From Chloroflexota bacterium (GTDB lineage Bacteria > Chloroflexota > Limnocylindria > Limnocylindrales > CSP1-4): a DNA stretch of 64,000 bases. Positions 36,421 through 50,874 of the stretch are shown piece after piece. The stretch is from positions 3,452-67,451 of the forward strand of contig JBDTQW010000002.1 in the NCBI GenBank assembly GCA_039931975.1, written 5' to 3'. Under the pieces are notes generated by a model. It did no database searches. It was not told the DNA's origin and saw only the letters and a list, made by a program, of their open reading frames with translations. The position numbers and the translations under genes were made by a program. Numbering within the stretch: position 1 is the first letter of the stretch; each line of letters begins with the position of its first letter.

Positions 36421-37268
36421 CCGACCAGCGGGAACAGCATCTTGATCGGCGCCTTCGCGGCCATCTCCTCGGCGCGCTGGCGGCGCTCGATCCGGAGCTG
36501 CTCTGACTGGACCTGGAGGACCTTCGAGATCGACACGCCGAGCTGCTCGGCCTGGATGATTGCGCCGATGAAGTTGGTGAGCGGCGCCACCTCGGTTCGC
36601 GGGACCATGTCGCGCAGGGCTTCCCGGCGCGACTTTCCGACGCGAACCTCGGCCAGCGCCCGGCGGAACTCGTCGGACAACGGGCCCTTGAGCTTCTCGA
36701 CCACCTTGGCCAGCGCGGCGTCGAAGCCGAGACCGGCCCGGACGGAGATCGTCAGCAGGTCGAGTGTGTCCGGGATCATGATCAGGATCGCCTTCTGGCG
36801 AGCCTTGATCCGCCGTCCCAGCCAGAATTCCGGGGCGATGAAGCCGATCAGACCGCCGACCATCGCGCCGAGGATCCCGCCGATGATCCCCATGTTGAGG
36901 ACGGCCAGGGCGAGCAGGAAGGTCAGGATCGAGAAGATGATCGTGAAGATGCCCTTGATCCCGAGCCACTCGGTGACGCCCAGGTCGCCCGGGTTGCCGG
37001 CAAGCGCCAGCCGCTTCTGGGTCCGGTCGCCGAACGACTGACTCGTCACCCGGCCGACGGTGCCGGACATCCGGCTGGCCAGCGGGCGGAGGGTCCGCTC
37101 GAGGAAGGGCTGCTGAAGCTCAAGCTCTTCGAGGTTCTTGGCCTGCATCGTCCCGAGCTGGGTGAGGCGGGCCTGGACCGGGTCGACCGATCGACCGCCG
37201 GCGAGCCCGAAGACGATCAGCAGGATCGCCGCCGCCGCGATCGCGGCCACGAGAAGGGGAAGGATCAT
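36342..37268 (-). CDS. tadC: Tad pilus inner-membrane platform protein TadC (T2SS F domain)
   Basis: A 308-aa protein with the T2SSF-type topology and core (PDTLDLLTISVRAGLGFDAALAKV). It is paralogous to the upstream gene. Confidence 0.88.
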   Translation of the reverse strand: MILPLLVAAIAAAAILLIVFGLAGGRSVDPVQARLTQLGTMQAKNLEELELQQPFLERTLRPLASRMSGTVGRVTSQSFGDRTQKRLALAGNPGDLGVTEWLGIKGIFTIIFSILTFLLALAVLNMGIIGGILGAMVGGLIGFIAPEFWLGRRIKARQKAILIMIPDTLDLLTISVRAGLGFDAALAKVVEKLKGPLSDEFRRALAEVRVGKSRREALRDMVPRTEVAPLTNFIGAIIQAEQLGVSISKVLQVQSEQLRIERRQRAEEMAAKAPIKMLFPLVGCIFPSLFIVILGPAIILIVKNLKVS

Positions 37269-37269
37269 G

Positions 37270-38286
37270 TCAGACCTCGATGTCGACGATCTTGCGGATC
37301 GCCATGAAGCCGAGGAACATCATGAACCCACCGAAGAACAGGATGATCACGCCGACGGGCAACCCGGCGACCGCGACCTCCTTGTCGAACATCGGCTGCA
37401 TGAAGCCCGGTGCGGCGATGAACAGGAACATGGCCAGGCCGATCGGCAGGAACCCGACGACGTAGCCCGACAGACGCTGCTGGGCCGTCAGGGTCCGGAT
37501 CTCGCCCTTGATCCGGACTCGCTCACGAATGGTGAACGCGATCGAGTCGAGGATCTCGGCAAGGTTGCCGCCGACGGTGTGCTGGATGGAGATGGCCGTG
37601 GCCATCAGCTCGAGGTCGTCCGACTTGACCCGCCGGACCATGTTCTCGAGGGCCTGGTCGAACGGCAGGCCAAGGTTGACCTCGCGGATGACCCGGCCGA
37701 ACTCGGTCGAAACCGGCGGTCGCGACTCGCGCACCACCATCTCGATGGCCTGGAGGAACGAAGAGCCGGCGCGGAGCGCGTTGGCGATCAGGGTGATCGT
37801 GTCAGGCAGCTGCTTGTTGAAGGCGTTGAGCCGTCCGCTCTTGCGCCGTCCCAGCCAGAAGCGCGGCAGCCAGAAGCCGACGAGCCCGCCGATGAGCAGG
37901 AACAGCGGATTTCCGAGCGCCGGGAAGACGAACGAGAGCAGGAGCATGACCACCGGAACGCCGACGATCGAGCCGCCCCAGATCAGCAGGAACTCGCTCG
38001 GCTTGAGCTTGAGGTCGGCGCGGGCCAGGTCGCGCTGCAGGTTCGCCCCGAAGTCGCGCTGCTCGACGACCTTGTTGAGGCTCGCCAGCGCCTGGCTCTG
38101 GGCGATCAAGTCGGAGATCGCGCCCTGGCCGGTCGAGGTCGACTTGACCTTGTCCGGCTTCCCCGCGGCGTAGCGCTCGAGGCGCGCGCTGATGCCCGAG
38201 CTGCCGCCCGACGACGCCAGACCGAACGCGATCAGCAGGATGGCGAGGGCAGTGATCCCGGCTACAACGAGCGTCATCGACTCCAC
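37270..38286 (-). CDS. tadB: Tad pilus inner-membrane platform protein TadB (T2SS F domain)
   Basis: 338 aa; LPDTITLIANALRAGSSFLQAIEMV. Sits directly downstream of tadA. Confidence 0.88.
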   Translation of the reverse strand: MESMTLVVAGITALAILLIAFGLASSGGSSGISARLERYAAGKPDKVKSTSTGQGAISDLIAQSQALASLNKVVEQRDFGANLQRDLARADLKLKPSEFLLIWGGSIVGVPVVMLLLSFVFPALGNPLFLLIGGLVGFWLPRFWLGRRKSGRLNAFNKQLPDTITLIANALRAGSSFLQAIEMVVRESRPPVSTEFGRVIREVNLGLPFDQALENMVRRVKSDDLELMATAISIQHTVGGNLAEILDSIAFTIRERVRIKGEIRTLTAQQRLSGYVVGFLPIGLAMFLFIAAPGFMQPMFDKEVAVAGLPVGVIILFFGGFMMFLGFMAIRKIVDIEV

Positions 38287-38311: not shown

Positions 38312-39727
38312 TCAGTAGTTGAAGCCGAACAGGCCCGGGGGCAGGTGGATGCCCTGGATTTCGAACTTCTCGACGAACTTCGGGCGGATCCCGGTCGGCT
38401 TCAGCCGGCCCTGGATCTTGCCCTCGATCACTCCGGACTGCTCGAAGACGAAAACGTCCTGCATGACGATGACGTCGCCTTCCATGCCCTGGACCTCGGT
38501 GATGTTGACGATCTTTCGGGTGCCGTCCTTGAGACGGCTCTGCTGGACGATCAGGTCGACGGCCGAGGCGACCTGCTCGCGAATCGCCCGGAGGGGCAGG
38601 TCCACGCCGGCCATCAGGACCATCGTCTCGAGGCGGGACAACATGTCGCGGGGCGAGTTTGCGTGGCCGGTGGACATCGAGCCGTCATGGCCGGTGTTCA
38701 TGGCCTGAAGCATATCGAGTGCTTCGCCCGAGCGGCACTCCCCGACGATGATCCGATCGGGCCGCATCCGGAGCGAGTTCCGGACGAGGTCGCGGATCGC
38801 GATCGCGCCCTTGCCCTCGATGTTCGGTGGGCGCGACTCGAGGGTGACCACGTGCTCCTGGCGAAGCTGGAGCTCGGCCGCGTCCTCGATGGTGATGATC
38901 CGCTCGTCGTTGGGGATGAACGAAGACAGGACGTTGAGCGTCGTGGTCTTGCCCGAGCCGGTACCGCCCGACACGAAGATGTTCAAGCGGGCCTCGACGC
39001 AGGCCTTGAGGAAGTCGAACATGTCGGCGGTCGCGGTCCCGAACCGGATGAGATCGTCCACCGTGAAGGGCGAGGCGGAGAACTTGCGGATCGTGATGAC
39101 CGGCCCGACCAGCGACAGCGGCGGGATGATGGCGTTCACTCGGGACCCGTCGGTCAGTCGGGCGTCGACCATCGGCGACGACTCGTCGACGCGCCGGCCG
39201 ATCGGGGCGATGATCCGATCGATGATCCGCATCACGTGGTCGTCGTTCTGGAAGACGACGTTGGTCAGCTCGAGCTTGCCCGAGCGCTCGATGTAGACCT
39301 GGCGCGGGCCGTTGACCATTACCTCGGTGATGCTCTCATCGCGCAGGAGCGGCTCGAGCGGCCCGAGGCCGATGATCTCGTCCGTGATCTGCTCGAGCAT
39401 CCGCACCCTTTCGGCACGGGTCAGGGCGAGGCCTTCCTCGTCGATGACCTTGCCGAAGATCTCCTCGATCTGGCGCCGGACCTCGACCTGATTGGACAGG
39501 TCGAGCTTCGGATCCAGGTCCTGGATGACCCGGTTCTGGATGCGGAACTTGACATCGCGGAAGGATTCCCGAACGGGGCCCTGCGACATCATCCGCGTCG
39601 ACGGCGTCGGCGGCGACGTTCCGACCGGACCGGCCGGACCCCCGCCCGCCGGTGCCGGTAGGTTTTCCGAGGGTCCACCCGGAGACGAGCCAGGACGAGC
39701 GCTCTCGATCCGCTTTAGGAGGGACAT
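38312..39727 (-). CDS. tadA: Tad pilus secretion ATPase TadA/CpaF
   Basis: Walker A is VSGGTGSGKTTTLN. Also seen: the Asp box, Walker B (RIITIEDAAEL) and the His box (TGHDGSMSTGHAN). The N-terminal ~45 aa are a P/G-rich extension. Confidence 0.95.
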   Translation of the reverse strand: MSLLKRIESARPGSSPGGPSENLPAPAGGGPAGPVGTSPPTPSTRMMSQGPVRESFRDVKFRIQNRVIQDLDPKLDLSNQVEVRRQIEEIFGKVIDEEGLALTRAERVRMLEQITDEIIGLGPLEPLLRDESITEVMVNGPRQVYIERSGKLELTNVVFQNDDHVMRIIDRIIAPIGRRVDESSPMVDARLTDGSRVNAIIPPLSLVGPVITIRKFSASPFTVDDLIRFGTATADMFDFLKACVEARLNIFVSGGTGSGKTTTLNVLSSFIPNDERIITIEDAAELQLRQEHVVTLESRPPNIEGKGAIAIRDLVRNSLRMRPDRIIVGECRSGEALDMLQAMNTGHDGSMSTGHANSPRDMLSRLETMVLMAGVDLPLRAIREQVASAVDLIVQQSRLKDGTRKIVNITEVQGMEGDVIVMQDVFVFEQSGVIEGKIQGRLKPTGIRPKFVEKFEIQGIHLPPGLFGFNY

Positions 39728-39763: not shown

Positions 39764-41017
39764 CTACCGCCATGCGAACAGCGACTTGCGAGAGCCCGTC
39801 TTGGCATCCTCGGACACCGCCTCCTTACGATCGCCACCGGTGATGGCGGTCGCAAGGCGGAGGATGTCCTGGGACACCTGGGCCTCTCGGTTGGACAAGA
39901 CGAACGGCACGCCGCGATTGAGGGCGTAGACCACGCTGCGCCCGTCGCTCACGATCGTGTGGTCGACCTTTCGGCCGATCGAATGCTCGACGTCCGCGAG
40001 GCGGATGCCGAGCGTGGAATCGGCTCGATTCAGGATGAGCTTGACCTTCGAGGCCTCGTATCCGAGCTGGTCGGCGACTTCTAGGAAGAGTCGCATGTTC
40101 TTGATGCTCGTGATCTCGAGGGTGAGGGCCGTCAGGATGGTGTCCGCCTGGTCGAGGATCGCCAGCGTGGTATCGCTGAAGTTCGCGGTGCAATCCACGA
40201 CGACCAGGTCGTTGGTGGCGCGGAGCACCTCGAGAACCTTGCGGATCCCGACCGGGGTGATCATCTCGGCCATCTCGGGAGACGGCGGGGCCAGCAGGAC
40301 GCGCACGCCCGACGAGTGGTTGATGACGAACGTGTCGATCGACTCAGGCTCGCCGCCGGCCTCCATCTCTGGGACCAGGTCGGCGATCGACTTGTTCTTC
40401 GGGTTCAGGTTCAGGAGCACGCCGACGTCGCCGAACTGGAACGATCCATCGACGAGGACGGTCTTCATGCCGAGGTCGGCCGCGGCCGCCACTGCGAAGT
40501 TGACGGCGATCGTGGTCCGGCCCACCCCGCCCTTGGGGCTGAACACGGCAACGATCTGGCCGGGTTCCCGACCCGCGCCTCGTGCGGCCTTGGCTGCCGC
40601 GGCGGCGACGTTGGTGACGGTGATCCGGCCCTGCTTCTCGCGCTCTCGCGTGTACACCTGGCGGATCGACGCGGTGAGCTCATCGCTGCTGAAGGGCTTG
40701 ACCAGGAACTCACGAGCGCCGGCGAGCATCGATCGGCGGAGGTAGTCGGCCTCACCCTGGACGGACATCATCACCACCGAGGCGGTCGGCACCTCGGTGG
40801 CCATCTGCTCGGTGGCAGCGATCCCGTCCATGTCGGGCATGTTGATGTCCATCAGCACCACGTCCGGGTGTACCCGGCTGGCCATCTCCAGCGCTTGGCG
40901 GCCGGAATCGGCCGCCCCGACCACCTCGATGTCGCTCTCGAACCCGAGGAGCTTGGTGAGGTGGTCTCGCGTCTCGGCGATGTCGTCGACGATGAGGACC
41001 TTGATCATGTCTGCCAT
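39764..41017 (-). CDS. cpaE: CpaE/TadZ-like ParA/MinD-family ATPase fused to a canonical response-regulator receiver domain
   Basis: The REC domain has VLIVDD, LMDINMPDMDG, MMSVQG and LVKPF. The ATPase domain has VFSPKGGVGRTTIAVN, a deviant Walker A in which the P-loop Lys is replaced by Arg. Confidence 0.88.
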   Translation of the reverse strand: MADMIKVLIVDDIAETRDHLTKLLGFESDIEVVGAADSGRQALEMASRVHPDVVLMDINMPDMDGIAATEQMATEVPTASVVMMSVQGEADYLRRSMLAGAREFLVKPFSSDELTASIRQVYTREREKQGRITVTNVAAAAAKAARGAGREPGQIVAVFSPKGGVGRTTIAVNFAVAAAADLGMKTVLVDGSFQFGDVGVLLNLNPKNKSIADLVPEMEAGGEPESIDTFVINHSSGVRVLLAPPSPEMAEMITPVGIRKVLEVLRATNDLVVVDCTANFSDTTLAILDQADTILTALTLEITSIKNMRLFLEVADQLGYEASKVKLILNRADSTLGIRLADVEHSIGRKVDHTIVSDGRSVVYALNRGVPFVLSNREAQVSQDILRLATAITGGDRKEAVSEDAKTGSRKSLFAWR

Positions 41018-41212: not shown

Positions 41213-42169
41213 CTACTTCGGAAGGATGGCCTCGACGATCTGCGGGGGCAGGACCCCGTACTCGTCAACGAGAGTCTTGAGGATGACGCCGGTCGTCGCA
41301 TCGGTGGCCGGCTCGGTCGGGTTCCCAGCGTCGTCGACGAAGTCCTTCGGCGAGCGCAGGACGAGGCTGATACAACCTTCGACCTGGGCGTACTTGATGA
41401 CTTCGGCCTGCTGAGCGGTGACCGCCAGGATGACGATCTCCTTCTGGCCATTGAGGGTCGTCCCGCCGGAGCCCGGCGCGGGCGAGGCCTGGGCGACGGT
41501 CTGGTCGACCGGCGGCAGCTGAGTCCCGACGACCTGCATGTTCTGCAGGAGCATCTTGACCGACAGGCTGCTGCCGAGGTCAGGGATCGACGTCACGGCG
41601 TCGGTCTGGCTGTCGACGGTCAGGAACGGGAAGGAGGTACCGCACTGGGTGGTGCCGCCATCGCCCTGGCCCTGCCAGCCGATACCGACGATCGCATCGA
41701 CCCGGTCACCGACATTGATCAGGGTCCCGACGCCGGTCACCTGGTCGACCTGCACCGACTGGGCACGGGAGCCCTTCGGCAGGAGCGGGCCCGGAGGCTG
41801 CGCGCCTGGATTGCCGGTCGCGAACATCGATTGGGTGATCTGGGCGTTCTTCGTCACGTTGGTCCGGACGATCTGGCCGACGATCTGCCCCGGATCGCCG
41901 ACAGCCCCAGAAAGGCGGTTCTCGATCAGGACCTTGTGCGTCTGCAGCATGTCCGAGCGGATCTGCGTCCCGAGGGGGATATCGACCGCCGCTGTGACTG
42001 TGTCCAGCTCGGTGACCGGCTGGTTGCCGGTATTCGACCCTTGCGGGCTGCTGAACAGGAACACGATCGCGACGAACGCAACCGCTGCGAGGACGACCCC
42101 GACGAGCAGGATCAACCGATTCGATCTCTTCAAAACCACTCTCCCCAGCCGTGTGACAGGTGGCACCAC
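41213..42169 (-). CDS. cpaB: Flp pilus assembly protein CpaB/RcpC (SAF-domain)
   Basis: An N-terminal TM segment (LILLVGVVLAAVAFVAIVF) followed by an SAF/RcpC-like body. A more likely start is the GTG at 42139 or the TTG at 42133, which follow GGGGAGAG. Confidence 0.85.
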   Translation of the reverse strand: MVPPVTRLGRVVLKRSNRLILLVGVVLAAVAFVAIVFLFSSPQGSNTGNQPVTELDTVTAAVDIPLGTQIRSDMLQTHKVLIENRLSGAVGDPGQIVGQIVRTNVTKNAQITQSMFATGNPGAQPPGPLLPKGSRAQSVQVDQVTGVGTLINVGDRVDAIVGIGWQGQGDGGTTQCGTSFPFLTVDSQTDAVTSIPDLGSSLSVKMLLQNMQVVGTQLPPVDQTVAQASPAPGSGGTTLNGQKEIVILAVTAQQAEVIKYAQVEGCISLVLRSPKDFVDDAGNPTEPATDATTGVILKTLVDEYGVLPPQIVEAILPK

Positions 42170-42194
42170 TGTAGCATCGGGGAAAGGGGACGCG

Positions 42195-42203
42195 ACTATA
42201 CCA
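42195..42203 (-). promoter_or_regulatory. Putative extended -10 (TGGTATAGT) for the cpaB-tad operon
   Basis: The minus strand reads ggccttTGGTATAGTcgcg, 25 to 60 nt upstream of the candidate cpaB starts. Confidence 0.45.
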
Positions 42204-42358
42204 AAGGCCTAGGACCATTAGGAGGAAATGGCCAGAAATCCAGCCCGATTCGTGCGTGGAAGGCGTTCTGGGCCTCCCCGGGGAGCCATCGCACCGGCGG
42301 TCGGTGGGAGGGGTTCCGGAGAGGTTTCCCACCCCGTCCGCATAGGACCCTTTACGGG

Positions 42359-42402
42359 CTCGCACCGGACTCGCACCGGACTCGCACCGGACTCGATCGG
42401 GC
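42359..42402. repeat. 11-bp tandem direct repeat, 3 perfect copies plus 1 degenerate
   Basis: The plus strand has ctcgcaccgga three times (42359..42391), then ctcgatcgggc (7/11 match). On the minus strand the unit is tccggtgcgag. It lies between the flp1 terminator and the cpaB promoter. Confidence 0.9.
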
Positions 42403-42445
42403 CCCGCACGAAGTCTCACCGAAGGGTGGTCGACCGCCGGAATCG

Positions 42446-42478
42446 ACGAGCGGTCCTCCTGATCGAAGGACCGCTCGT
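42446..42478 (-). terminator. 12-bp hairpin downstream of flp1
   Basis: acgagcggtcct [9-nt loop] aggaccgctcgt is a perfect stem. On the minus strand it is followed by cgattccgg. Confidence 0.55.
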
Positions 42479-42519
42479 TCGGCGTTCGGGATGGCCAGCC
42501 CAGGCTCGGCTGGGTGAGG

Positions 42520-42693
42520 CTAGATCGAGGTGCCGACTCGACTGAGGATGGTGCTGATCTGGCTGCCCAGGAACAGCAGGGCAAGGATCGCGACGATCGC
42601 GATCAGGGCAAGGATCAGGGCGTATTCGGCCAGACCCTGGCCTCGCTCACCGGTTCGTGAAGGAAGGATGAATGCGCGGATGCACGCCAACAC
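42520..42693 (-). CDS. flp: Flp/Fap family type IVb pilin, copy 1
   Basis: A 57-aa product: VLACIRAFILPSRTGERG|QGLAEYALILALIAIVAILALLFLGSQISTILSRVGTSI. It carries the G/xxxxEY prepilin processing motif and a hydrophobic core. GTG at 42693, with AAGGAGG 11 nt upstream. Confidence 0.85.
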   Translation of the reverse strand: MLACIRAFILPSRTGERGQGLAEYALILALIAIVAILALLFLGSQISTILSRVGTSI

Positions 42694-42784
42694 CGATATC
42701 GAGTCCTCCTTTCCCAGAAGTCCCTCGCCGGGGCGAGGGCACCCGCCGGGTCGCATCGAGGGGTTCGGTCCCGGTGGGAGCGCC

Positions 42785-42813
42785 ACACTATGGGGCGGTC
42801 GAGAGGGTGTCAA
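42785..42813 (-). promoter_or_regulatory. Putative promoter for flp1 (TTGACA-17-TAGTGT)
   Basis: The minus strand reads TTGACAccctctcgaccgccccaTAGTGT, with a consensus -35 and a 17-nt spacer. It begins 23 nt after the flp2 terminator and ends about 90 nt upstream of flp1. Confidence 0.5.
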
Positions 42814-42836
42814 TACGATTCGCCCCGGGAATCGAT

Positions 42837-42865
42837 GACGCCGGGCCCTGTGAGGGCCCGGCGTC
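42837..42865 (-). terminator. 12-bp hairpin downstream of flp2
   Basis: gacgccgggccc-tgtga-gggcccggcgtc is a perfect stem. On the minus strand it is followed by atcgattccc. Confidence 0.6.
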
Positions 42866-42924
42866 AGTCGGTATGTGGTGAGCCTCGTCGGTTAGAGCCC
42901 GACGGGCTTCCGCGGTTGTCGGTG

Positions 42925-43095
42925 CTAGACCGAGTTACCGACGGTGCTGAGGATCTTGCTGACCTGTCCACCGAGGAACAGCAGCGCGATGATCGCGACG
43001 ATCGCGATAAGGGCGAGGATCAGCGCGTACTCGGCCAGTCCCTGGCCCTCCTCGTCGCGGTTCAACCACGAGAGAAATGAATTGACGAGCGCCAT
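42925..43095 (-). CDS. flp: Flp/Fap family type IVb pilin, copy 2
   Basis: A 56-aa product: MALVNSFLSWLNRDEEG|QGLAEYALILALIAIVAIIALLFLGGQVSKILSTVGNSV. AGGAGG lies 9 nt upstream of the ATG at 43095. The track ORF start at 43122 is less likely. Confidence 0.88.
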   Translation of the reverse strand: MALVNSFLSWLNRDEEGQGLAEYALILALIAIVAIIALLFLGGQVSKILSTVGNSV

Positions 43096-43144
43096 GCCGT
43101 TAGGCCTCCTGGATGATTGCACACCCCCAGTCGAGGGCGACGTG

Positions 43145-43150
43145 AATATA
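43145..43150 (-). promoter_or_regulatory. Putative -10 (TATATT) for flp2
   Basis: An AT-rich hexamer that stands out in GC-rich DNA, about 50 nt upstream of the flp2 ATG. No convincing -35 is present. Confidence 0.35.
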
Positions 43151-43213
43151 GGTGAGCCGCCAGCATTGCGACATTAGCCGGATGGTACCGGTCGGCGATG
43201 ACCTATGGGTCCC

Positions 43214-43366
43214 TCATGGCAGCTGGCTGCTGAGCCAGTCGAGAGCGGCAGCGACCTGGTCGTCGAAGAACACCAGCAGGACGACGACCACGAGGATCGA
43301 GCAGCCCAGGACGATCCCGTATTCCACCAGACCCTGACCTGCGGGCGATCGGCCCAGGCTGCGCAC
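43214..43366 (-). CDS. Divergent Flp-like pilin, copy 3
   Basis: A 50-aa product: VRSLGRSPAG|QGLVEYGIVLGCSILVVVVLLVFFDDQVAAALDWLSSQLP. It has the same G/QGLxEY motif. The GTG start lies 28 nt after the kinase stop, with no obvious SD. Confidence 0.55.
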   Translation of the reverse strand: MRSLGRSPAGQGLVEYGIVLGCSILVVVVLLVFFDDQVAAALDWLSSQLP

Positions 43367-43394
43367 GTCCGGCTCGGTCGGCACGGGCGCCGGT

Positions 43395-44681
43395 TCAGTG
43401 GGCCGGCGGCAGGTCGACCGTGATACGGACCTCCGAGCCGTCGTCGGCAAGCTCGGCCCGGGCGCCAATGGTCGCTGCTCGAGCCTGCACGTCTCGCCAC
43501 GACTTGAGCGGGAGGCCGATCGGGGCGACGCTCGCCGCCTGGGCCGCGGCCTTCTCGTCGCGGCGGTCCTCGATCATGGCCGCCAGGGCGGCCGGCATCT
43601 CGGCCTCGGGCTTGGGCCGTCGGCGCATACGCCCGCCACTCGGCTCGCCATCGTTCGAGGCCCCGGACTCCTCGGGGGCGGCCTCATCGACCGTCTCCCG
43701 GATGGACCGGACGACGGCCTCGAGCGTGCCCTTGGTCCAATCGAGACGCAGCTCGACTCGCTCGGGATGGCCGGTGAGGTAGCCCGCCAGCGACTCCTCG
43801 ACCATCCGGAACATGCCTGACTCGAGCTCCATCGGTAACCGCCGATCCGCGCCCATCGATTCGAAGTCGACCAGCACCTGGGCCCGTCGACCGCGGTCTC
43901 GGGCCGATCGCCGGAGAGTCGGGACCAGCCCGAGGTCGTCGAGGACCATCGGCCGCACATCGAAGATGAACGACTTCGTGGCGTCGAGCGTGGACTGGAC
44001 CATCGCGATGAGCTCGCGCGTCTCGGGCTTGGCTGCAGCCGGATCGCTCGAGATCAGCCGGTCGACGATCTGCGCCTGGAGCACGATGTTGGTCAGGCTC
44101 TGGGCCGGGCCGTCATGCATCGCGCGGGCGATATCGCGGCGGAGGTCTTCCTGGGCCGCCAGGATCATCCGAGAGACGGCGGTCGACACCCGCGCGCCGG
44201 CCTCGCCACCACTCGCCGCGCCGGTGCCGCGCTCGTCGACCTCGCCGCTGTCGTCCCCGGGGCGAGAGAGCATGGGGATCGAACCACCGTCGGGCATCGT
44301 CCGGAGCTGGCTGGCGAACCCGGCCATCGCGTCGCGGTAGCGGCGCAGGACCTTGACCTTGCCATTGAGGACGTCGACCTGCGACTCCATCACGATCGCT
44401 CGTCGGGTCAGAGCGAGGAGCTGGGCGCTCTGTTCGAGGAGCCCCGCCGGATCAGAGGGCGACTCGCGTCCCGCCGTGACGCGGGCCGCCATGGCCGCCC
44501 GCTTCGCCTCGTGCCGCTCGCTCTCGCCCGTCGCCTGCTGGATGAGCATGCCGATCTCGACCAGCTCGCCATCGAGGACGGCCACGTCGTGCTCGACGCG
44601 TGCCGCTAGGGCGGCCGGGCTGTCGTACCGGTCGGTCTCTGCGTCCCGGATGGACGTCGTCGGTCCTGGTGGTGTCGTCAT
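43395..44681 (-). CDS. Soluble DegS-like HisKA_3 histidine kinase homologue with degenerate ATP-binding domain
   Basis: The H-box is IARAMHDGPAQSL. The N-box position reads VEESLAGYLTGHP, with no Asn. There is no DxGxG, and a ~60-aa charged insert sits where G1 should be. The C-terminus IGARAELADDGSEVRITVDLP aligns with the paralogue's terminus. No TM segment; the N-terminus is coiled-coil-like. Confidence 0.8.
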   Translation of the reverse strand: MTTPPGPTTSIRDAETDRYDSPAALAARVEHDVAVLDGELVEIGMLIQQATGESERHEAKRAAMAARVTAGRESPSDPAGLLEQSAQLLALTRRAIVMESQVDVLNGKVKVLRRYRDAMAGFASQLRTMPDGGSIPMLSRPGDDSGEVDERGTGAASGGEAGARVSTAVSRMILAAQEDLRRDIARAMHDGPAQSLTNIVLQAQIVDRLISSDPAAAKPETRELIAMVQSTLDATKSFIFDVRPMVLDDLGLVPTLRRSARDRGRRAQVLVDFESMGADRRLPMELESGMFRMVEESLAGYLTGHPERVELRLDWTKGTLEAVVRSIRETVDEAAPEESGASNDGEPSGGRMRRRPKPEAEMPAALAAMIEDRRDEKAAAQAASVAPIGLPLKSWRDVQARAATIGARAELADDGSEVRITVDLPPAH

Positions 44682-44720
44682 CGCTACCCGCGGATGGACT
44701 CTGCTAGGGTCGTCGCCCGA

Positions 44721-45464
44721 TCAATCCTCGGGCATCCGGATCCAGCCCTGGCGCATGGCATAGACCACGGCCTGGGTCCGGTCGTTGACCGACAGCTTGC
44801 GCAGGATCGAGCTCATGTGGTTCTTGACGGTCTGCTCGCTGATCGACAGGGCGTAGGCGACCTGCTTGTTCGTCATGCCCTGGGCGATGTTGTCGAGGAT
44901 CTCGACCTCGCGCGGAGACAATGGGGCGAAGATCGGGGCCGCATCCTGACCGTAGACGGCTAGCTCCCGGAACTCCTTCAGCACTCGGGATGCGACCGCC
45001 GGCTTGGCGAAGACCTTGTCGTTGATGAGGTACTCACCGGCGGACACGCGGCGGATGATCGTGACCAGGTCGTCGGGGCCGACGTCCTTGAGGATGAATG
45101 CCGCGGCACCGGCCTTGATCGCGTCGAACAGAGCGTCCTCTTCCTCGTTCTGGGCGAGGACGATGATCCCGACCGAGGGCAACTCGCGCTTGATCCGCTG
45201 GGTCGTCTCGATCCCGCCAGGGCTGGGCAGGGTCAGGTCCATCAGGATGATGTCGGGCGAGGTGTCCAGGGCGAGCTCGATGGCGCTTCGACTGTCGTCG
45301 GCCTCGCCTACGATGAGGAAGTCGGGCTCGCGCTCGAGGAGGCCGCGCACGCCCATCCGGAACAGGGCGTGGTCATCGACCAGGAGCAGCTTGGTCTGCT
45401 CCACATTGCGTCGATCGGGCCCTCCCCGGCGGCGGTCGGGACCCGGGTAGTCGATATCCGTCAT
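44721..45464 (-). CDS. NarL/LuxR-family response regulator
   Basis: The REC domain has LLLVDDH, ILMDLTLP and LKD. The C-terminal LuxR HTH is LSPREVEILDNIAQGMTNKQVAYALSISEQTVKNHMSSILRKL. The N-terminal extension is 24 aa and contains GPDRRRGGPDRRN. Confidence 0.93.
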   Translation of the reverse strand: MTDIDYPGPDRRRGGPDRRNVEQTKLLLVDDHALFRMGVRGLLEREPDFLIVGEADDSRSAIELALDTSPDIILMDLTLPSPGGIETTQRIKRELPSVGIIVLAQNEEEDALFDAIKAGAAAFILKDVGPDDLVTIIRRVSAGEYLINDKVFAKPAVASRVLKEFRELAVYGQDAAPIFAPLSPREVEILDNIAQGMTNKQVAYALSISEQTVKNHMSSILRKLSVNDRTQAVVYAMRQGWIRMPED

Positions 45465-46597
45465 GTGCTCTCCTTTTCGAGCGGGACAACTAGCCGAACC
45501 ACCGTTCCGGCGTCCGGACGAGATGACACTTCCAGCGCGGCGCCGATGAGCTCGGCGCGCTCACGCATGAACTGAAGACCGAAGTTGCGCCGGCTACGGC
45601 TGGCAGCCGCCCCGACGTCGAAGCCCAGCCCGTCGTCGCGGACCTCGACGGTCCATGCGCCGTCCTCGAGCCGGGAGACGATGCTGGTCCGCGTCGACTT
45701 GGCGTGCTTGCGCACGTTATGGAGCGCTTCCTGGACGACCCGCAGGACGACTGTCTGCTGGGCGTCGGCGAGCATGTCGGCCGGCGCCTGGAGGTCGGTC
45801 TCGACGGTGCTGTCGGACAGCGCCGCCATCGTCTCGGCCGCATCGACGATCGAGCCATCGAGACCGAGGTCGTCGAGGAGCGGAGGGCGAAGCTGGCTGA
45901 TGAACGTTCGGACGTCGCCGAGCTCGCGGCGGAGCAGTTCGCGCATGAAGCGCAGCTCCGTCCGGGCGAGGCGCGGGTCGCCGTCCATCACCCGATCGAT
46001 GTACTCGACCTGGAAGATCGCGTTGGAGAGGGCCTGAGCCGGTCCATCGTGGATCTCCTGGGCAAGCCGGGATCGCTCGGCTTCCTGGGCCTCGACGATG
46101 CGCATCTCGACATCGTGCGGCCGATCCGTTCCGTGTCCTTCCGGAACGAGGCTGGCGTCGCCACGCTCGAGGAACAGCCAGGTGCTCTCCAGGCTGCGGT
46201 GGGCCAGCTCGAAGCGAGCCAGCTCGGCCTGATGGGCGCCGACGTCAATCTCGAGCCGCTCGAGATCCGAGCGCAGGGCATTGACCTCGGCATCGTCCGC
46301 GCCAGCTTCTGCCGCCCCGGCTGCGCTGACGCGGCCCGATTCGGCGCGGGCATCGGCCTCCGCGAGCTGCTCGCGGCGAGGCCGACGCACGAGGGCATCG
46401 AGCTCCTCGCGGAGGGCCTGGTAGCGGCCAAGCTCTTCGAGGTGGGCGGCCCGGTAGCGTCCGGCCACGGCATCGAGACTGTTGGCGGCATAAGCCAACG
46501 CGGCCTTTGCCTCAGCGTGGAGCTCGTCGAAGCGGCCATCCCGAGCATCGCCCACTCGCGTGCCGTCCATGTCGCCCGAGTATAGGGGTCCGGGCAT
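45461..46597 (-). CDS. Soluble DegS-like HisKA_3 histidine kinase (canonical catalytic domain)
   Basis: The H-box is LAQEIHDGPAQAL, the N-box QEALHNVRKHA, G1 RDDGLGFD and G2 GLQFMRERAELIGAAL. No TM segment. The ATG at 46597 overlaps the upstream GT gene stop (TGATG), and the stop overlaps the RR start (ATGA). An alternative ATG lies at 46570. Confidence 0.9.
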   Translation of the reverse strand: MPGPLYSGDMDGTRVGDARDGRFDELHAEAKAALAYAANSLDAVAGRYRAAHLEELGRYQALREELDALVRRPRREQLAEADARAESGRVSAAGAAEAGADDAEVNALRSDLERLEIDVGAHQAELARFELAHRSLESTWLFLERGDASLVPEGHGTDRPHDVEMRIVEAQEAERSRLAQEIHDGPAQALSNAIFQVEYIDRVMDGDPRLARTELRFMRELLRRELGDVRTFISQLRPPLLDDLGLDGSIVDAAETMAALSDSTVETDLQAPADMLADAQQTVVLRVVQEALHNVRKHAKSTRTSIVSRLEDGAWTVEVRDDGLGFDVGAAASRSRRNFGLQFMRERAELIGAALEVSSRPDAGTVVRLVVPLEKEST

Positions 46598-48234
46598 CAG
46601 GGACAGCCGATCTCGAAGACCAGGGTCTTCGCTAGGGAGCGAGCATCCGCCGGGTCGCTCGGCGGAGGGCCGAGGTCGAGCGCGTGGAAGCAGTCGGCCC
46701 CTGGCACCGCCGATGCCAGGACCTCCGGCCATCGCCCATGGTCGTCGTCGGCCATGACCAGGTACCGCGTGCCGCTGAACGCAGCCGCCAGCTCCATCAC
46801 GGCGGCCGGGCTCTCGTCGGGCAGGGCCAGAGTACGGATCCGCAGCGCTTCGGCTAGCCAGATCGGGAAGTCAGTCACGACCGGCCCGGAGGTGGCATCC
46901 AGGGGGCGGCCGATGGCGGCCATCCGTTCGGCCAACAGCTCGTAGCGCCGGGCGACCTGGGCGGATTGGTCGGCGTACCCGGTGAGGGCGACGCTGAACA
47001 GCATCGCCGAGGCGATCGTCAGCGTGGGTCCAAGCCAGGCCACCGGCCGGGTCCAGCCGCGCCAGGCACCGGCGCGCTCGACCAGCGCATCGAGGGCCAA
47101 CAGGGCGCTGACGATGAGCAGCACGTGGATCGCCCCGGCAGCGTGGAGGAAGGTGCCCCACGTCGTCGCCACCGGGAAGAGCAGGCTGGTGACCAGGAAG
47201 CTGACGATGGCGAACATGACCAACGGTCGAAGGGAGCGCGCCCGGCCGGTCCACGGCAGCGCCGCTAGTCCGATCAGCGAGACCGGGAAGCCCGGGGCCA
47301 GGAGGACGTTTGCAAGGTTGTGCCACATCCCCTCGATCCGGAGCTCGAACAGGCGGGCCGGACCGATGGCCAGGTAGCGGGCCAGCGTCGGCGGGTCCCT
47401 GAAGGCAAAGATGTCGAAACCGGTGACCGACAGGGCGTTGGCCAACGCCTGGCCAGGCAACGGGTTGCCGAAGGCGATCCAGTCGCGGATCGCCCAGGGA
47501 GCGAAGACGAGCACGGCGACCGCGGCCGGGACCAGGACCAGGCCGCGGCGCAGTCCACGTGCGCCCTGCCACCACGCGAGACCGGCCCAGGTCAGGGCGA
47601 TGAGGGCGGCCTCGTTGCGGGTCAGGGCCGCCAGGCCCAGGACGAGACCCAGCCCGAGGAGGCGACCGTCGCGCAGGAGGCTGCCCGATGGCGGTGCGCG
47701 CAGCAGGCGGGTCATCAGCAGGGTCCCGGTCAGGGCCAGGGCGGCGAAGGGCATGGTCGAGTCGGGCAGTGCGCCGAACAGGACGAGCGGGAGGAAGACC
47801 GCGGCGGTCAGGCCGGTCCCGATGGCCAGCGTCCGTGCTCGGCCGACCGGGAAGTCGCGCTCCTCGGCGACATCCGCGGCGAGGCGCCAGGCGAGGACGG
47901 GCACGAGCGAGCCGACCAGGACGGCTGAGATCTTGGCCGCGTCAAACGTCGGACCCAGGAGAGCCATCGCCGGCAGCGTCAACACGCTTGGCAGCGGCAG
48001 CCAGACCTCGAACGCAGGCCGCGGGAAGACGAGCGGTGGGGTCTGGAAGCTCCAGATCGCGTCACTGACCAGCCCTCTGCCCTCGATCACGTTGCGGGCC
48101 ACACCGACGTAATAGGCCGTGTCCTCGGGGGTCGGGAAAGCGAGGCTGGAGGCGAACACGACCCGGACGGCCAGTGCCGCCACGAAGACCAACCCGGCGC
48201 TCAGCCACGCCTCGCGCGCCGTCATCGGACGCAT
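46597..48234 (-). CDS. GT-C fold membrane glycosyltransferase, PMT_2/GT39-like, paralogue A
   Basis: 545 aa and polytopic. The first-loop acidic motif is PTPEDTAYYVGVARN. It has a C-terminal soluble domain. Confidence 0.7.
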   Translation of the reverse strand: MRPMTAREAWLSAGLVFVAALAVRVVFASSLAFPTPEDTAYYVGVARNVIEGRGLVSDAIWSFQTPPLVFPRPAFEVWLPLPSVLTLPAMALLGPTFDAAKISAVLVGSLVPVLAWRLAADVAEERDFPVGRARTLAIGTGLTAAVFLPLVLFGALPDSTMPFAALALTGTLLMTRLLRAPPSGSLLRDGRLLGLGLVLGLAALTRNEAALIALTWAGLAWWQGARGLRRGLVLVPAAVAVLVFAPWAIRDWIAFGNPLPGQALANALSVTGFDIFAFRDPPTLARYLAIGPARLFELRIEGMWHNLANVLLAPGFPVSLIGLAALPWTGRARSLRPLVMFAIVSFLVTSLLFPVATTWGTFLHAAGAIHVLLIVSALLALDALVERAGAWRGWTRPVAWLGPTLTIASAMLFSVALTGYADQSAQVARRYELLAERMAAIGRPLDATSGPVVTDFPIWLAEALRIRTLALPDESPAAVMELAAAFSGTRYLVMADDDHGRWPEVLASAVPGADCFHALDLGPPPSDPADARSLAKTLVFEIGCP

Positions 48235-49910
48235 CGCGGGTCGTCGGCAGCGAGGCAGACGGGAAAGAGGGCCGCGTCCGAGCCGCTCCCGCTGGGCGGT
48301 GCTCCGGCGGCACCGAGCGCCGTGGCGGCACCCAGCGCCCCATCGGCCCCGGCCGGGATCGTGGCAGGTTCACGCCAGATGGCCCGGCCGATCCAACTCG
48401 CGCGAGGCGCGTCGTCCTGCAGGAGACCGGCCAGCGCCTGAACCGTGTCGCGCCGCTCGACCAGCAGCCACCGTGCTCCGTACGCCTGGGCGACGCGCTC
48501 GACGGTAGCGATGGCGTCGTCCGGGGCGACGACTCCCGGATGGCCGGTCCAGTACTTCACGCCTCCGGTGTCGAGGCTCATGACCACGTCGCTGGGCGCG
48601 GCCCCCGCCTGGGCCAGGGCGGTCCCGGCGGCGACCTTGATGGCGCGCTCCTCCGCCCAGGCGGTCCGGGTCGCGAACGAGAACCCGATCCCGACGAGCA
48701 TGGTCAGCACGACGGCGCCGCCGACGAATACCCGGCTGGCCTCAGCCGCATCCCAGCCCCGACGCCGGAGAGCGACCCAGGCGACGAGGCCGACGACGCC
48801 CTCCAGGGCCAGGATCGAGGCCTGCGGGGCGAGGGCGATCGCCGAATGGATGAACGTGCCGTTCGGCACGTGGACCGCCGAGATCAGCGCGGAGAACGCG
48901 AACAGGATGGCGGCATAGACGAAGAACGGGGTGAAGTACGGTGAGCTGCGGCGCAGCCAGGCGCCCACGACGATCAGTGGCGCGAGGACCAATCCCGCGA
49001 CCAGGACGACAAAGCTGATGACCGCCTGCGCCAGACCAACGAGCCGGCTCGAGACGAGCGGGCCGAGGCCCTGGCCGAGGAAGGTCGACAGGGTCGGGTG
49101 ACCCTCGATCGAGTTCATCTCGGCGAGCGATCGGATCCACAGGATCCGGCCCGACGCCGACGACGGCGAGATCGAGCCGAAGACGGCCAGCTGACGCGCC
49201 CACCAGGGCCCCATGACCAGCACGAACAGGCCGAGCGAGGCGATCGCCGACCACCACGGCAGGACTGCCGGCCGAGCCGTCCGCCAGGCCCGGTACCGAT
49301 GCCACAGGAAGAGCAGCCCGAGTGCGGCCCCCACCAGGACGCCGTCGTTCCGGGCCAGCATCGCCAGGCCGACCAGCGCGCCCGCCGCGGCGAACGCCCG
49401 GGCGTCTCCCTTGAGGCCGCGGGCGCCCAGCCACAGGGCGCCGAGGACGATCGGCTGGTAGAGCGAGAAGTTGTCCGGCTGGGCCATGAATACCACCGCC
49501 GCAGGGACCGCCACGAGCAGACCCGCCCCGAGCGCGACATCGCGCCGCGCTCCGGCCTCGGTGGCGAAGGCCCAGGTCATCGGCGCGGCGAGCGAGCCGA
49601 TCAGGGCGAAGGGCAGGGCCGACGCCCAGGCGGTGGGGCCAAGAACGGCCAGGAACGGGACCTGGACCAGCGCGGCCAGCGGCATCCAATGGGCGTTGCT
49701 GGGGATCGGCAGGGTCGGTTGGGCCGGGATCGAGCCGCCAAGGTCGACGAAGGTCCAGATGAAGTCGATGTTGAATCCGTGCCCGGCCTGGAGGGCCCGA
49801 GCGACGTTGACGTAATAGTAGGAATCAACGTAGGCCGGGTCCGGATATTGAGCGATCAAGACCAGCCGCACGAGCGCGGCGAACGCGTAGAGACCGAGGG
49901 CGGTTCGCAT
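48222..49910 (-). CDS. GT-C fold membrane glycosyltransferase, PMT_2/GT39-like, paralogue B
   Basis: 562 aa and polytopic. The first loop is PDPAYVDSYYYVNVARAL. It has a C-terminal soluble domain and overlaps paralogue A by 13 nt. Confidence 0.7.
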   Translation of the reverse strand: MRTALGLYAFAALVRLVLIAQYPDPAYVDSYYYVNVARALQAGHGFNIDFIWTFVDLGGSIPAQPTLPIPSNAHWMPLAALVQVPFLAVLGPTAWASALPFALIGSLAAPMTWAFATEAGARRDVALGAGLLVAVPAAVVFMAQPDNFSLYQPIVLGALWLGARGLKGDARAFAAAGALVGLAMLARNDGVLVGAALGLLFLWHRYRAWRTARPAVLPWWSAIASLGLFVLVMGPWWARQLAVFGSISPSSASGRILWIRSLAEMNSIEGHPTLSTFLGQGLGPLVSSRLVGLAQAVISFVVLVAGLVLAPLIVVGAWLRRSSPYFTPFFVYAAILFAFSALISAVHVPNGTFIHSAIALAPQASILALEGVVGLVAWVALRRRGWDAAEASRVFVGGAVVLTMLVGIGFSFATRTAWAEERAIKVAAGTALAQAGAAPSDVVMSLDTGGVKYWTGHPGVVAPDDAIATVERVAQAYGARWLLVERRDTVQALAGLLQDDAPRASWIGRAIWREPATIPAGADGALGAATALGAAGAPPSGSGSDAALFPVCLAADDPRCVR

Positions 49911-49919
49911 CGCCGGTGC

Positions 49920-49928
49920 AGCCTAGCA
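49920..49928 (-). promoter_or_regulatory. Extended -10-like TGCTAGGCT, 9 nt upstream of the ATG at 49910
   Basis: The minus strand reads ggTGCTAGGCTgcaccggcgATG with no SD. It heads the minus-strand block 49910 to about 43214. Confidence 0.35.
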
Positions 49929-50010
49929 CCGGGCACCCCGGACTCAGCCCGGTACGAATCACCCATGACCGGCGCCATCCGGGGCGGTATTGAGCCGCGT
50001 TCGCGGGGGG

Positions 50011-50016
50011 TAGCAT
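50011..50016 (+). promoter_or_regulatory. -10-like TAGCAT, 9 nt upstream of the ATG at 50026
   Basis: gggGGTAGCATcgccctcggATG with no SD. It is divergent from the previous element. Confidence 0.35.
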
Positions 50017-50025
50017 CGCCCTCGG

Positions 50026-50874
50026 ATGAGCCTCTCGAACCGGTTCTGGACCCTGACCCCACCCTCGCCGATCGTGCGTCGCGCGCTGCGCGACGGACTC
50101 GCCTTCGCTGGCCTCGCCTTCGCCGCGTACCTGTTTCTCGTGGTGGCTCCGACGGCCGGGACGTTCGGCTTCGATGCCTATGCCTACTGGTCGCTCGACC
50201 TGACCAACCCGTACGCCGTACCTGCCGGGACCTTCGGTGCGTTCACCTACACGCCGGTGATCGCGCGGCTGTTCGCTACGTTCGGCCTGCTGAGCTGGCC
50301 GGCCTTCGTCTGGCTCTGGTCGGCCCTCCTGGTCGCGACCGTCGTGTGGCTCGGTTGGCGGAACGCGCTCCTGCTCTTGGCCTTCCCACCGGTCGCGCTC
50401 GAGCTGTACCACGGCAACGTCCACCTCCTCATGGCGGCGGCGATCGCACTCGGTTTCCGCTATCCAGTCGCCTGGTCGTTCGTGCTGCTGACCAAGGTGA
50501 CCCCGGGAGTCGGCCTGGTCTGGTTCGCCGTCCGCCGGGAGTGGCGACCTCTGGCGATCGCACTCGGCTCTACCGCGGTGGTCGTCGTGGCTTCTCTGCT
50601 GATCGACGGCAGCCTATGGATAGCCTGGCTCGACGAGAGCATCCTCAAGACGGCCAGCGGCGCGCCATTCAACCAGTTCTCGATCGCGATCCCGCTCCTC
50701 GTCCGGTTGCCGGTGGCGGTGCTGCTCGTCGCCTGGGGCGCTCTGACCGACCGGCGCTGGACGGTCCCGGTGGCAGCGACCCTGGCCCTGCCCATCCTGT
50801 GGCCCAGTGGCTTGGCCGTCCTCGCCGCGCTGTGGCCGATCCTCCAGCGCCGGCCGGAGCTCGAGCCAGCCTGA
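50026..50874 (+). CDS. DUF2029/GT87-like polyprenol-phosphate-sugar-dependent glycosyltransferase
   Basis: 282 aa and polytopic. Seen: GFDAYAYWSL...FTYTPVIARLF and ...LTKVTPGVGLVWF. Confidence 0.65.
   Translation: MSLSNRFWTLTPPSPIVRRALRDGLAFAGLAFAAYLFLVVAPTAGTFGFDAYAYWSLDLTNPYAVPAGTFGAFTYTPVIARLFATFGLLSWPAFVWLWSALLVATVVWLGWRNALLLLAFPPVALELYHGNVHLLMAAAIALGFRYPVAWSFVLLTKVTPGVGLVWFAVRREWRPLAIALGSTAVVVVASLLIDGSLWIAWLDESILKTASGAPFNQFSIAIPLLVRLPVAVLLVAWGALTDRRWTVPVAATLALPILWPSGLAVLAALWPILQRRPELEPA

Follow-up and report, generated by a model that had tools for sequence, protein, structure and literature searches.

What use does a bacterium have for a histidine kinase that has lost every motif with which such enzymes bind ATP? 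The question is raised by a stretch of 64,000 nucleotides (hereafter the window) from contig JBDTQW010000002.1 of a Chloroflexota bacterium, whose source is a metagenome-assembled genome (MAG) of 2.65 Mb that is 77% complete. Here, two histidine kinases (HKs) flank one response regulator (RR) beside genes for Flp pilins and the Tad pilus machinery. One of the kinases, HK1, is canonical; the other, which we call psHK, is a pseudo-histidine kinase. The locus is a Tad/Flp-pilus-linked two-component module in which one of the two kinases is now a conserved pseudo-kinase, and this pseudo-kinase is the positional ortholog of HK2, a canonical kinase found beside the same pilus genes in other Chloroflexota. 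The three genes of the module are:

45461..46597, minus strand: HK1, a soluble canonical HisKA_3 histidine kinase of 378 amino acids (Pfam HisKA_3 and HATPase_c) and the presumed ATP user
44721..45464, minus strand: the RR, of NarL/LuxR type, with a receiver, a GerE helix-turn-helix and an Arg-rich N-terminal extension (Pfam Response_reg and GerE; NCBIfam)
43395..44681, minus strand: psHK, a degenerate ortholog of the ancestral Tad-linked HK2, 428 amino acids long, with a match to HisKA_3 only

The first-pass annotation, made from the sequence of the window, described the upstream kinase as fully canonical and the downstream one as having kept its phospho-His box and lost the N-box Asn and the G1 box, and both descriptions are borne out. 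HK1 matches HisKA_3 (E 2e-15) and HATPase_c (E 4e-11), and its boxes are found at H183, N294, 321 (DxGxG) and 340 (G2). In psHK, the HisKA_3 domain (PF07730) is matched over residues 181-247 (E 1.5e-11) and H189-D190-x3-Q194, the HDGPAQ box with its DxxxQ motif, is intact; Pfam finds no HATPase_c (PF02518) in it even at E ≤ 1. The N-box Asn is replaced by G300, the G1 Asp by S326, the first G1 Gly by R328 and the G2 Gly by P391. Orthologs were collected from 13 genomes within the family and from 80 other species-level loci, and alignment columns were counted over 94 psHK and 88 HK1 sequences. His189, Asp190 and Gln194 are present in all 94 psHK sequences. None of the 94 has the N-box Asn (Gly in 52, Ala in 42), the G1 Asp (Ala, Ser and Thr in 78, 15 and 1, respectively) or the G2 Gly (Pro in 91), and the first G1 Gly is mostly Arg. 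By the same counts, the boxes of HK1 are all intact in 84-87 of 88 orthologs.

More sensitive comparisons agree with these counts. HK1 and psHK align by BLAST over the dimerization and histidine phosphotransfer (DHp) domain only, at 41% identity over 80 residues. When a profile of 47 psHK orthologs was searched against the PDB, it found the DHp domain of DesK only (profile positions 164-233, E ~1e-3), with nothing at E ≤ 0.001 and nothing over the C-terminal half. The C-terminal half of psHK, here called the pseudo-CA because it lies where other kinases have their catalytic and ATP-binding (CA) domain, retrieved just 208 proteins at E ≤ 0.001 from 1.84 billion cluster representatives, and it is thus a narrow family that does not recognize ordinary HATPase_c domains. 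Neither Pfam, the PDB profile nor the column counts show intact ATP-lid residues. Because the N, G1 and G2 boxes are gone in 94 of 94 orthologs and no HATPase_c match is found, the earlier proposal that the downstream kinase cannot bind ATP conventionally is well supported at the level of sequence.

A fold can outlast the motifs that it once carried, and structure prediction indicates that this has happened in psHK. The regions that we distinguish in the protein are:

44298..44618, minus strand: N-terminal helical hairpin or coiled coil, residues 22-128, the presumed input or interaction domain (AlphaFold2)
43932..44183, minus strand: DHp domain (HisKA_3), residues 167-250, with the His189 codon, CAT, at 44115-44117 (Pfam, codons)
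43413..43931, minus strand: pseudo-CA, residues 251-423, a Bergerat-like alpha/beta domain without N, G1 and G2 boxes (AlphaFold2, Foldseek)
43596..43700, minus strand: residues 328-362, a charged and disordered insert of variable sequence that stands where the ATP lid would be (pLDDT <50)

The full-length AlphaFold2 model (pLDDT 73) has two hairpin helices (22-73 and 78-128, pLDDT ~90), a disordered linker, the DHp helices (167-246) and a confident alpha/beta domain that is interrupted by the insert and an extra helix. Modeled alone, the pseudo-CA reaches a pLDDT of 87 and a pTM of 0.73. Foldseek places the DHp and CA region on DesK, the best structural match (E 6e-8, ~260 aligned columns), and the 50 PDB matches listed for the pseudo-CA are all CA domains of histidine kinases, among them the best matches, VraS (4gt8, TMt 0.70) and the DesK CA (3ehg, TMt 0.76), as well as DosS. 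The relationship to CA domains is therefore recovered by fold comparison only, not by sequence profile. According to these models, psHK keeps a Bergerat-type fold from which the ATP site is gone, the lid being replaced by a loop and a helix. The charged insert of ~60 amino acids described at first is roughly right in extent, but resolves into a disordered stretch of ~35 residues (328-362) and a new helix (about 363-385). The disordered stretch is often rich in Gly, Arg and Lys (for example, GRGRGKGK) and is then followed by an acidic, PEPE-like run; its composition is kept and its sequence is not, and most of it is missing in some orthologs (for example, P0081, P0094 and P0119).

Selection acts on psHK as it does on its canonical neighbor. 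We estimated the ratio of nonsynonymous to synonymous substitution rates (dN/dS) by NG86 from up to 150 sampled ortholog pairs per region. Within psHK, the ratio is 0.06 in the DHp domain, 0.09 and 0.17 in the first and second parts of the pseudo-CA, 0.23 in the N-terminal hairpin and 0.39 in the insert, whose mean identity to the window protein is 16%; the corresponding values for HK1 are 0.07 (DHp) and 0.11 (CA). From residue 160 on, conservation reaches 90% or more at 93 positions of psHK, some of them residues that were gained after the degeneration, and the pseudo-CA has conserved residues of its own (R261, R263, S275, S288, W315, P363, L366, M369, L390, P391 and W395). The reading frame is open and full-length in 94 species-level genomes. 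These frames, together with the dN/dS values, reject a decaying pseudogene: the pseudo-CA is constrained like a working catalytic domain, which is a case of neo- or sub-functionalization, not of decay.

The module is also stable in its surroundings. Full-length psHK orthologs occur in 14 of 15 sampled relatives from the same family, and the contig of the fifteenth stops just beyond the flp genes. On the minus strand, the gene order is GT-C, GT-C, HK1, the NarL-type RR, psHK, three flp genes, cpaB, REC-CpaE, cpaF, tadB, tadC and a DUF192 gene, where GT-C denotes membrane glycosyltransferases of that type and REC a receiver domain. Wherever the contig reaches, the order from GT-C to DUF192 is kept in 13 of 13 loci of the family and in 80 of 80 further loci, all of them in Limnocylindria, so that the triad of kinase, regulator and pseudo-kinase is always found with GT-C and flp/tad genes.

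Where did psHK come from? Its best homolog outside the family is a canonical, soluble, DegS-like HisKA_3 kinase with the N-box Asn and DxGxG; this is the kinase that we call HK2. Kinases of the HK2 type adjoin flp/tad genes in at least 13 other Chloroflexota families. A single one stands beside flp and/or cpaB-REC-cpaE-cpaF-tadBC in families f7, f9, f13, f17, f22, f24, f26, f27, f30, f45, f52, f54 and f59. Such a lone HK2 often lies downstream of a NarL-type RR, and in f9 and f59 there is a GT-C gene upstream. A second kinase, HK1, stands upstream of the RR in a few lineages; f34 and f53, for instance, have an HK1-RR-HK2 layout and a canonical HK2 at the place where the window has psHK. The N-terminus of psHK is homologous to the N-termini of canonical HK2s (tblastn matches from query residue 14-39). 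The canonical HK2s share the alpha-1 signature HDGPAQS[LM]xN[LF][VI]LQAEI, and alpha-1 of psHK, HDGPAQSLTNIVLQAQIV, is of this type and invariant or nearly so; that of HK1, HDGPAQALSNAIFQVEYI, differs. In a maximum-likelihood tree, HK1 forms one clade (support 100/99) that includes the HK1s of the outgroups, and psHK forms another (100/100) that lies among canonical HK2s, outside HK1, on a stem of 2.21 substitutions per site. We therefore reject psHK as a recent duplicate of HK1, since the tree groups it with the HK2s and both its N-terminus and its alpha-1 are of the HK2 type. HK1 and psHK are ancient paralogs.

These comparisons show that psHK is the positional ortholog of HK2 and that HK2 lost all of its ATP-binding motifs once, in the family of the window, after HK1 had joined the operon. 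A different outcome is seen in f3, a sister family of the same class (loci L178-L183, in genomes G009, G034, G142, G293, G046 and G196), which has GT-C, HK1, RR and flp genes, then REC-CpaE and the whole tad block, with neither HK2 nor psHK. This family kept HK1 and the RR and lost HK2 altogether; HK1 alone therefore suffices as a kinase. Taken together, the layouts and the tree give a series: HK2 alone; HK1 with HK2; and then either HK1 with pseudo-HK2, as in the window, or HK1 alone, as in f3. Evidently, HK1 took over the role of kinase, and the family of the window retained HK2 as an ATP-blind protein. A single phylum thus shows the gene in four stages at one and the same genomic position. 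How a working kinase turns degenerate is rarely visible, and the series is a testable case of kinase replacement and of the splitting or repurposing of function.

What the retained protein does must be read from the parts that it has kept. These are the DHp domain, the ancestral RR-docking alpha-1, the coiled-coil N-terminal domain and the CA-shaped fold, all under purifying selection. Probably, psHK removes or relays phosphate and does not generate it. All three roles that the first-pass annotation had proposed for it, those of phosphatase, phosphotransfer relay and heterodimer partner of the active kinase, are still candidates. The most likely single role, which we put forward tentatively, is to serve the RR as a phosphatase or as a phosphoryl sink, independently of ATP. 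In this scheme, HK1 would be the only ATP-using kinase and would phosphorylate the RR at its acceptor Asp, D76, and possibly the CpaE receiver too. Dimers of psHK would dock on what HK1 phosphorylates, be it one receiver or both, and remove the phosphoryl groups, by DxxxQ-assisted hydrolysis, by back-transfer to His189 or by both, with the pseudo-CA holding the DHp domain in a phosphatase-competent state. Kinase activity and phosphatase or sink activity would then be split over two proteins, each with its own input domain, and the output would be transcription of flp/tad (and perhaps of the GT-C genes) through the nearly invariant helix-turn-helix of the RR, which across 83 orthologs is on average 99% identical to that of the window. 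Control of the envelope-glycan (GT-C) genes, which the first-pass annotation suggested, is a "perhaps" founded on their position in the operon.

We favor a phosphatase or sink because of the DxxxQ motif, which is the phosphatase motif of HisKA_3 kinases (PMC3510030); because truncation of the CA domain abolished the phosphatase function of ChrS, another HisKA_3 kinase (PMC9491836); and because the ancestral adjacency of RR and HK2 points to the RR as partner. The dependence of the ChrS phosphatase on its CA domain would explain why psHK keeps a CA-shaped one. With DesK, moreover, the complex of kinase and regulator adopts a structure of its own in the phosphatase state (PMC5231405). Several points weigh on the other side. 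The carriers of psHK are all uncultured MAGs, and its function is deduced from genes. HK1 keeps the DxxxQ motif too, in 86 of 86 aligned orthologs, so a separate phosphatase is not obviously needed. The strict retention of His189 fits a relay at least equally well, the phospho-acceptor being dispensable for phosphatase action in some kinases. Finally, the same reasoning had long made PhyT a presumed phosphatase, and it proved to be a phosphotransferase, with no phosphatase activity in vitro (PMC5898713).

The last two points lead to the alternative that survives best, a relay like those of Spo0B, ChpT or PhyT, in which phosphate would pass from HK1 to one receiver, from there to His189 of psHK and on to a second receiver, linking the RR with REC-CpaE. 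We consider this possible, if rather unlikely. Like ChpT of Caulobacter crescentus and Spo0B of Bacillus subtilis, psHK has a His-bearing hairpin of the DHp type and a C-terminal Bergerat-like domain that is unable (in psHK, to judge by its motifs) to bind ATP, and a change of the lid of the same kind, a loop and an extra helix, has been described in ChpT (PMC3433190). The invariance of His189 in 94 of 94 orthologs is what a relay would demand, and there are two canonical receivers, those of the RR and REC-CpaE, in one gene block. In f7, f17, f26 and f54, the lone HK2 adjoins REC-CpaE and no RR ortholog is found by tblastn within ~9 kb, which suggests that the HK2 lineage is able to serve REC-CpaE. 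PhyT (formerly PhyP) of Sphingomonas melonis is a precedent: like psHK, it has a degenerate ATPase domain and a conserved His and is encoded beside its own regulator, and it relays phosphate from SdrG to PhyR and sequesters PhyR (PMC5898713). Unlike psHK, PhyT is membrane-anchored, belongs to the HRxxN/HWE-HisKA_2 type and acts on an anti-anti-sigma factor, PhyR.

The differences from the classical relays are, however, considerable. Unlike ChpT and Spo0B, psHK is of the HisKA_3 type, has the HDxxxQ box in full and carries a long coiled-coil domain at its N-terminus; its gene belongs to a plain HK-RR operon, without the stand-alone (single-domain) receiver or hybrid kinase of those relays. Homology to ChpT or Spo0B is not detectable in the sequence, and neither protein is among the 50 matches listed in each of two Foldseek searches. 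The ancestral RR-HK2 pairs (f4, f5, f9 and f59) point to the RR as a direct partner, and f3 manages with the same RR, REC-CpaE and tad genes and no psHK. The likeness of psHK to kinase-derived phosphotransferases is one of analogy, with an independent origin from HK2. A bolder version of the relay, in which psHK couples pilin transcription, through the NarL-type RR, to the assembly-platform ATPase, through REC-CpaE, is more doubtful still. If true, it would be the first HisKA_3-derived analog of Spo0B and ChpT, independently arisen, and the first demonstrated case of a phosphorelay that gates the assembly of Tad pili, and the canonical HK2, the pseudo-HK2 and the absence of HK2 would serve as natural intermediates for comparison.

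Another possibility, also an unlikely one, is that psHK is a non-catalytic modulator that binds or heterodimerizes with HK1, or that sequesters or recruits the RR, and so tunes HK1 allosterically. Precedents are not lacking: DivL acts on CckA, RetS on GacS and PhyT on PhyR, and DivL (Caulobacter), RetS-type modulators and PsmA are kinase-like proteins repurposed to regulate another kinase (PMC4211667, PMC12963549). DivL and PsmA have lost the phospho-acceptor His and kept the CA domain; psHK is the reverse, with the His kept and the ATP site lost, and its invariant His189 sets it apart from proteins of the DivL type. Another precedent is the evolved pseudokinase ChrS_CA-fs of Corynebacterium glutamicum. 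As with psHK, it is a HisKA_3 protein whose CA function is lost while a paralog, HrrS, phosphorylates a shared NarL-type regulator; it boosted signaling by the paralogous kinase independently of its own His, and its phenotype is distinct from that of a deletion (PMC9491836). This variant, though, arose in the laboratory by a frameshift that cuts the CA domain short, and in it the phosphatase is lost and the His is dispensable; psHK, by contrast, is an ancient family found in nature, in which the CA-shaped domain is conserved and neither the His nor DxxxQ varies.

Within psHK itself, the conserved surface residues that were gained (R261, R263, W315, W395 and others) and the variable charged loop suggest a new binding surface, and the retained coiled coil would also suit a modulator. 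A pure scaffold, on the other hand, has no need of His189, D190 and Q194, all of which are invariant in the 94 sequences, and heterodimers with HK1 are not favored by DHp domains that are 41% identical over 80 residues and differ in their alpha-1 signatures.

Much less probable is a psHK that is still an autokinase, with a non-canonical pocket for ATP or some other nucleotide. A Bergerat-like fold is retained under selection, but all the residue classes by which GHKL kinases contact Mg-ATP have been replaced in 94 of 94 orthologs, the lid has given way to a disordered loop and a helix, two new Trp residues, invariant or nearly so, occupy core positions, and the pseudo-CA no longer recognizes ordinary HATPase_c domains, as its 208 matches among 1.84 billion representatives indicate. 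That psHK is a functionless remnant in decay, as the complete loss of the gene in the sister family f3 might be taken to imply, is scarcely credible beside full-length open frames in 94 species-level genomes, dN/dS values of 0.06-0.23 in all folded domains and 93 positions from residue 160 on that are at least 90% conserved, some of them gained after the degeneration.

Degenerate histidine kinases are already known as a class from a few model systems, with ChpT, Spo0B, PhyT, DivL and the evolved ChrS pseudokinase among its members; psHK has the DHp domain with its His, the DxxxQ motif and the Bergerat fold of a HisKA_3 kinase and lacks the ATP-binding boxes. Within the literature searched, the first-pass annotation was right that no characterized system has the exact layout of kinase, regulator and pseudo-kinase. 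DegS of Bacillus subtilis is soluble, has a coiled-coil N-terminus and a HisKA_3 DHp domain, and is paired with an RR of the NarL/LuxR type, DegU. The likeness of our two kinases to DegS is limited to solubility and the coiled coil, as Pfam finds the DegS N-terminal domain in neither kinase at E ≤ 1 and the CA domain of psHK is degenerate. In the DesK-DesR system, it is the kinase, DesK, that psHK matches best in structure over its DHp and CA regions. The kinases of the AbrC1/C2/C3 system of Streptomyces coelicolor are membrane-bound. This three-gene system, with two HKs and one NarL-type RR, resembles the layout in the window, but both of its kinases are described as histidine kinases, without mention of degeneracy (PMC3098853).

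The link to pili has parallels elsewhere. A two-component system of Pectobacterium is encoded beside Flp/Tad pilus genes and controls them (PMC3767616), and PprAB is another system that flanks flp/tad genes; by their descriptions, these proteobacterial Tad-linked systems have one ordinary kinase, unlike the module in the window. The Chloroflexales are reported to have Tad pili only (PMC7332563), and in the literature searched no regulator of these pili is described. The Tad/Flp pili of Chloroflexota are thought to drive adhesion or motility, and the present locus offers a two-component module linked to them across the phylum. As the proteins of the psHK module are small and soluble, biochemical tests of them should be simple.

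The reading frames and translations on which the first-pass annotation was built agree with the gene calls. Both kinases lack transmembrane segments, as it had said: their maximal 19-residue Kyte-Doolittle windows are 1.08 and 0.72, versus 2.45 for the GT-C protein. The start of HK1 at 46597 is consistent with alignments of homologs. The whole gene block is tightly packed on the minus strand, at 36.3-49.9 kb of the window, and the junctions noted at first are all present: TGATG joins the stop of the GT-C-like gene to the start of HK1 at 46597, ATGA joins the stop of HK1 to the start of the RR at 45461-45464, and flp3 starts with GTG at 43366, 28 nt past the stop of psHK. The gap between RR and psHK is 39 nt. 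A scan of 42300-50200 for promoters and terminators found no sigma-70-like site and no minus-strand terminator, and is uninformative on transcription units. Upstream of HK1 lie:

48222..49910, minus strand: GT-C membrane glycosyltransferase (PMT_2; Pfam E 4.9e-8), the first gene of the conserved block
46597..48234, minus strand: polytopic GT-C-like membrane protein, called from its translation and synteny, whose stop overlaps the start of HK1

The gene next to HK1 had been called GT39-like. Of the two genes, 48222-49910 alone reaches the Pfam cut-off for PMT_2, and the GT-C-like gene that abuts HK1, 46597..48234, has no significant Pfam match. A PMT_2 GT-C gene is found upstream of HK1 in 13 of 13 loci of the family and ~70 of 80 further loci.

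The unusual N-terminal extension that had been noticed in the RR, GPDRRRGGPDRR, is real and is conserved across orthologs. It comprises residues 1-23 (window 45396-45464), with the pattern Y-x-G-P-[DE]-RRRGGPDRR, which is kept class-wide. It is also present in the sister family f3, without psHK, and absent from RR orthologs of other Chloroflexota families. The idea that the extension arose together with the pseudo-CA is rejected, as f3 has an ERRRGGDRR extension and no psHK, while outgroup RRs are without the extension. That the Arg-rich extension is a tail for binding a ligand or partner is only a guess. Several RRs of f3 have VIVDGH in place of DD at the acidic pair, and at one f3 locus (L180) the gap between RR and flp holds a 479-residue membrane protein and an open reading frame of ~400 residues with internal repeats.

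Downstream of psHK, the pilus genes are:

43214..43366, minus strand: flp3, a prepilin of 50 amino acids with a G/QGLVEY processing motif (translation)
42925..43122, minus strand: flp2, a prepilin (Pfam Flp_Fap E 1.5e-5, below the Pfam cut-off)
42520..42813, minus strand: flp1, a prepilin (Pfam Flp_Fap E 1.9e-5 over residues 63-96, below the cut-off)
41213..42169, minus strand: cpaB-like gene, assigned by gene order and synteny, its name coming from the first-pass annotation and not from Pfam
39764..41017, minus strand: REC-CpaE/TadZ, a receiver fused to a ParA/MinD-type ATPase (Response_reg E 2e-28; AAA_31)
38312-39727, minus strand: cpaF/tadA (Pfam T2SSE)
37270-38286, minus strand: tadB (Pfam T2SSF)
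36342-37268, minus strand: tadC (Pfam T2SSF)

The true start of flp1 is probably internal to its open reading frame, 42520..42813. The receiver of CpaE is fully canonical (DD10-11, D57, S85 and K107), and the ATPase has a Walker A motif, KGGVGRTT. REC-CpaE orthologs adjoin HK2-type kinases in many Chloroflexota families, and this adjacency, together with the canonical receiver, makes CpaE a candidate direct phospho-acceptor.

An extended -10-like element, TTGGTATAGTCGC (42192-42204, minus strand), lies upstream of cpaB in 72-79 of 80 related loci, with a single copy in each, and a conserved leader motif, GTGGTGCCACCTGTCACA (42152-42169), comes after it. The GTG of the called cpaB start (42169) falls within this motif, and relatives have a Shine-Dalgarno sequence, GGGGAGAG, and a TTG or GTG start ~25 nt past it; the true start of cpaB is therefore probably downstream of 42169. 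Many relatives (L037, L044, L106, L110 and others) have a direct repeat, ACCTTGC-N7/8-(A/C)CTTGC, ~45-75 nt upstream of a conserved TATAGT, and the subclade of the window has different, CACGCTC-like repeats there. A k-mer search from psHK to cpaB for an RR binding site recovered the cpaB promoter and the leader motif and gave no assignable site, because the repeats differ between subclades although the helix-turn-helix of the RR is on average ~99% identical. Loci L053, L156-L160, L165 and L172 (f7, f17, f26, f54 and f22) have a second cpaF-like ATPase gene, which closes the tad block ~1 kb downstream of DUF192.

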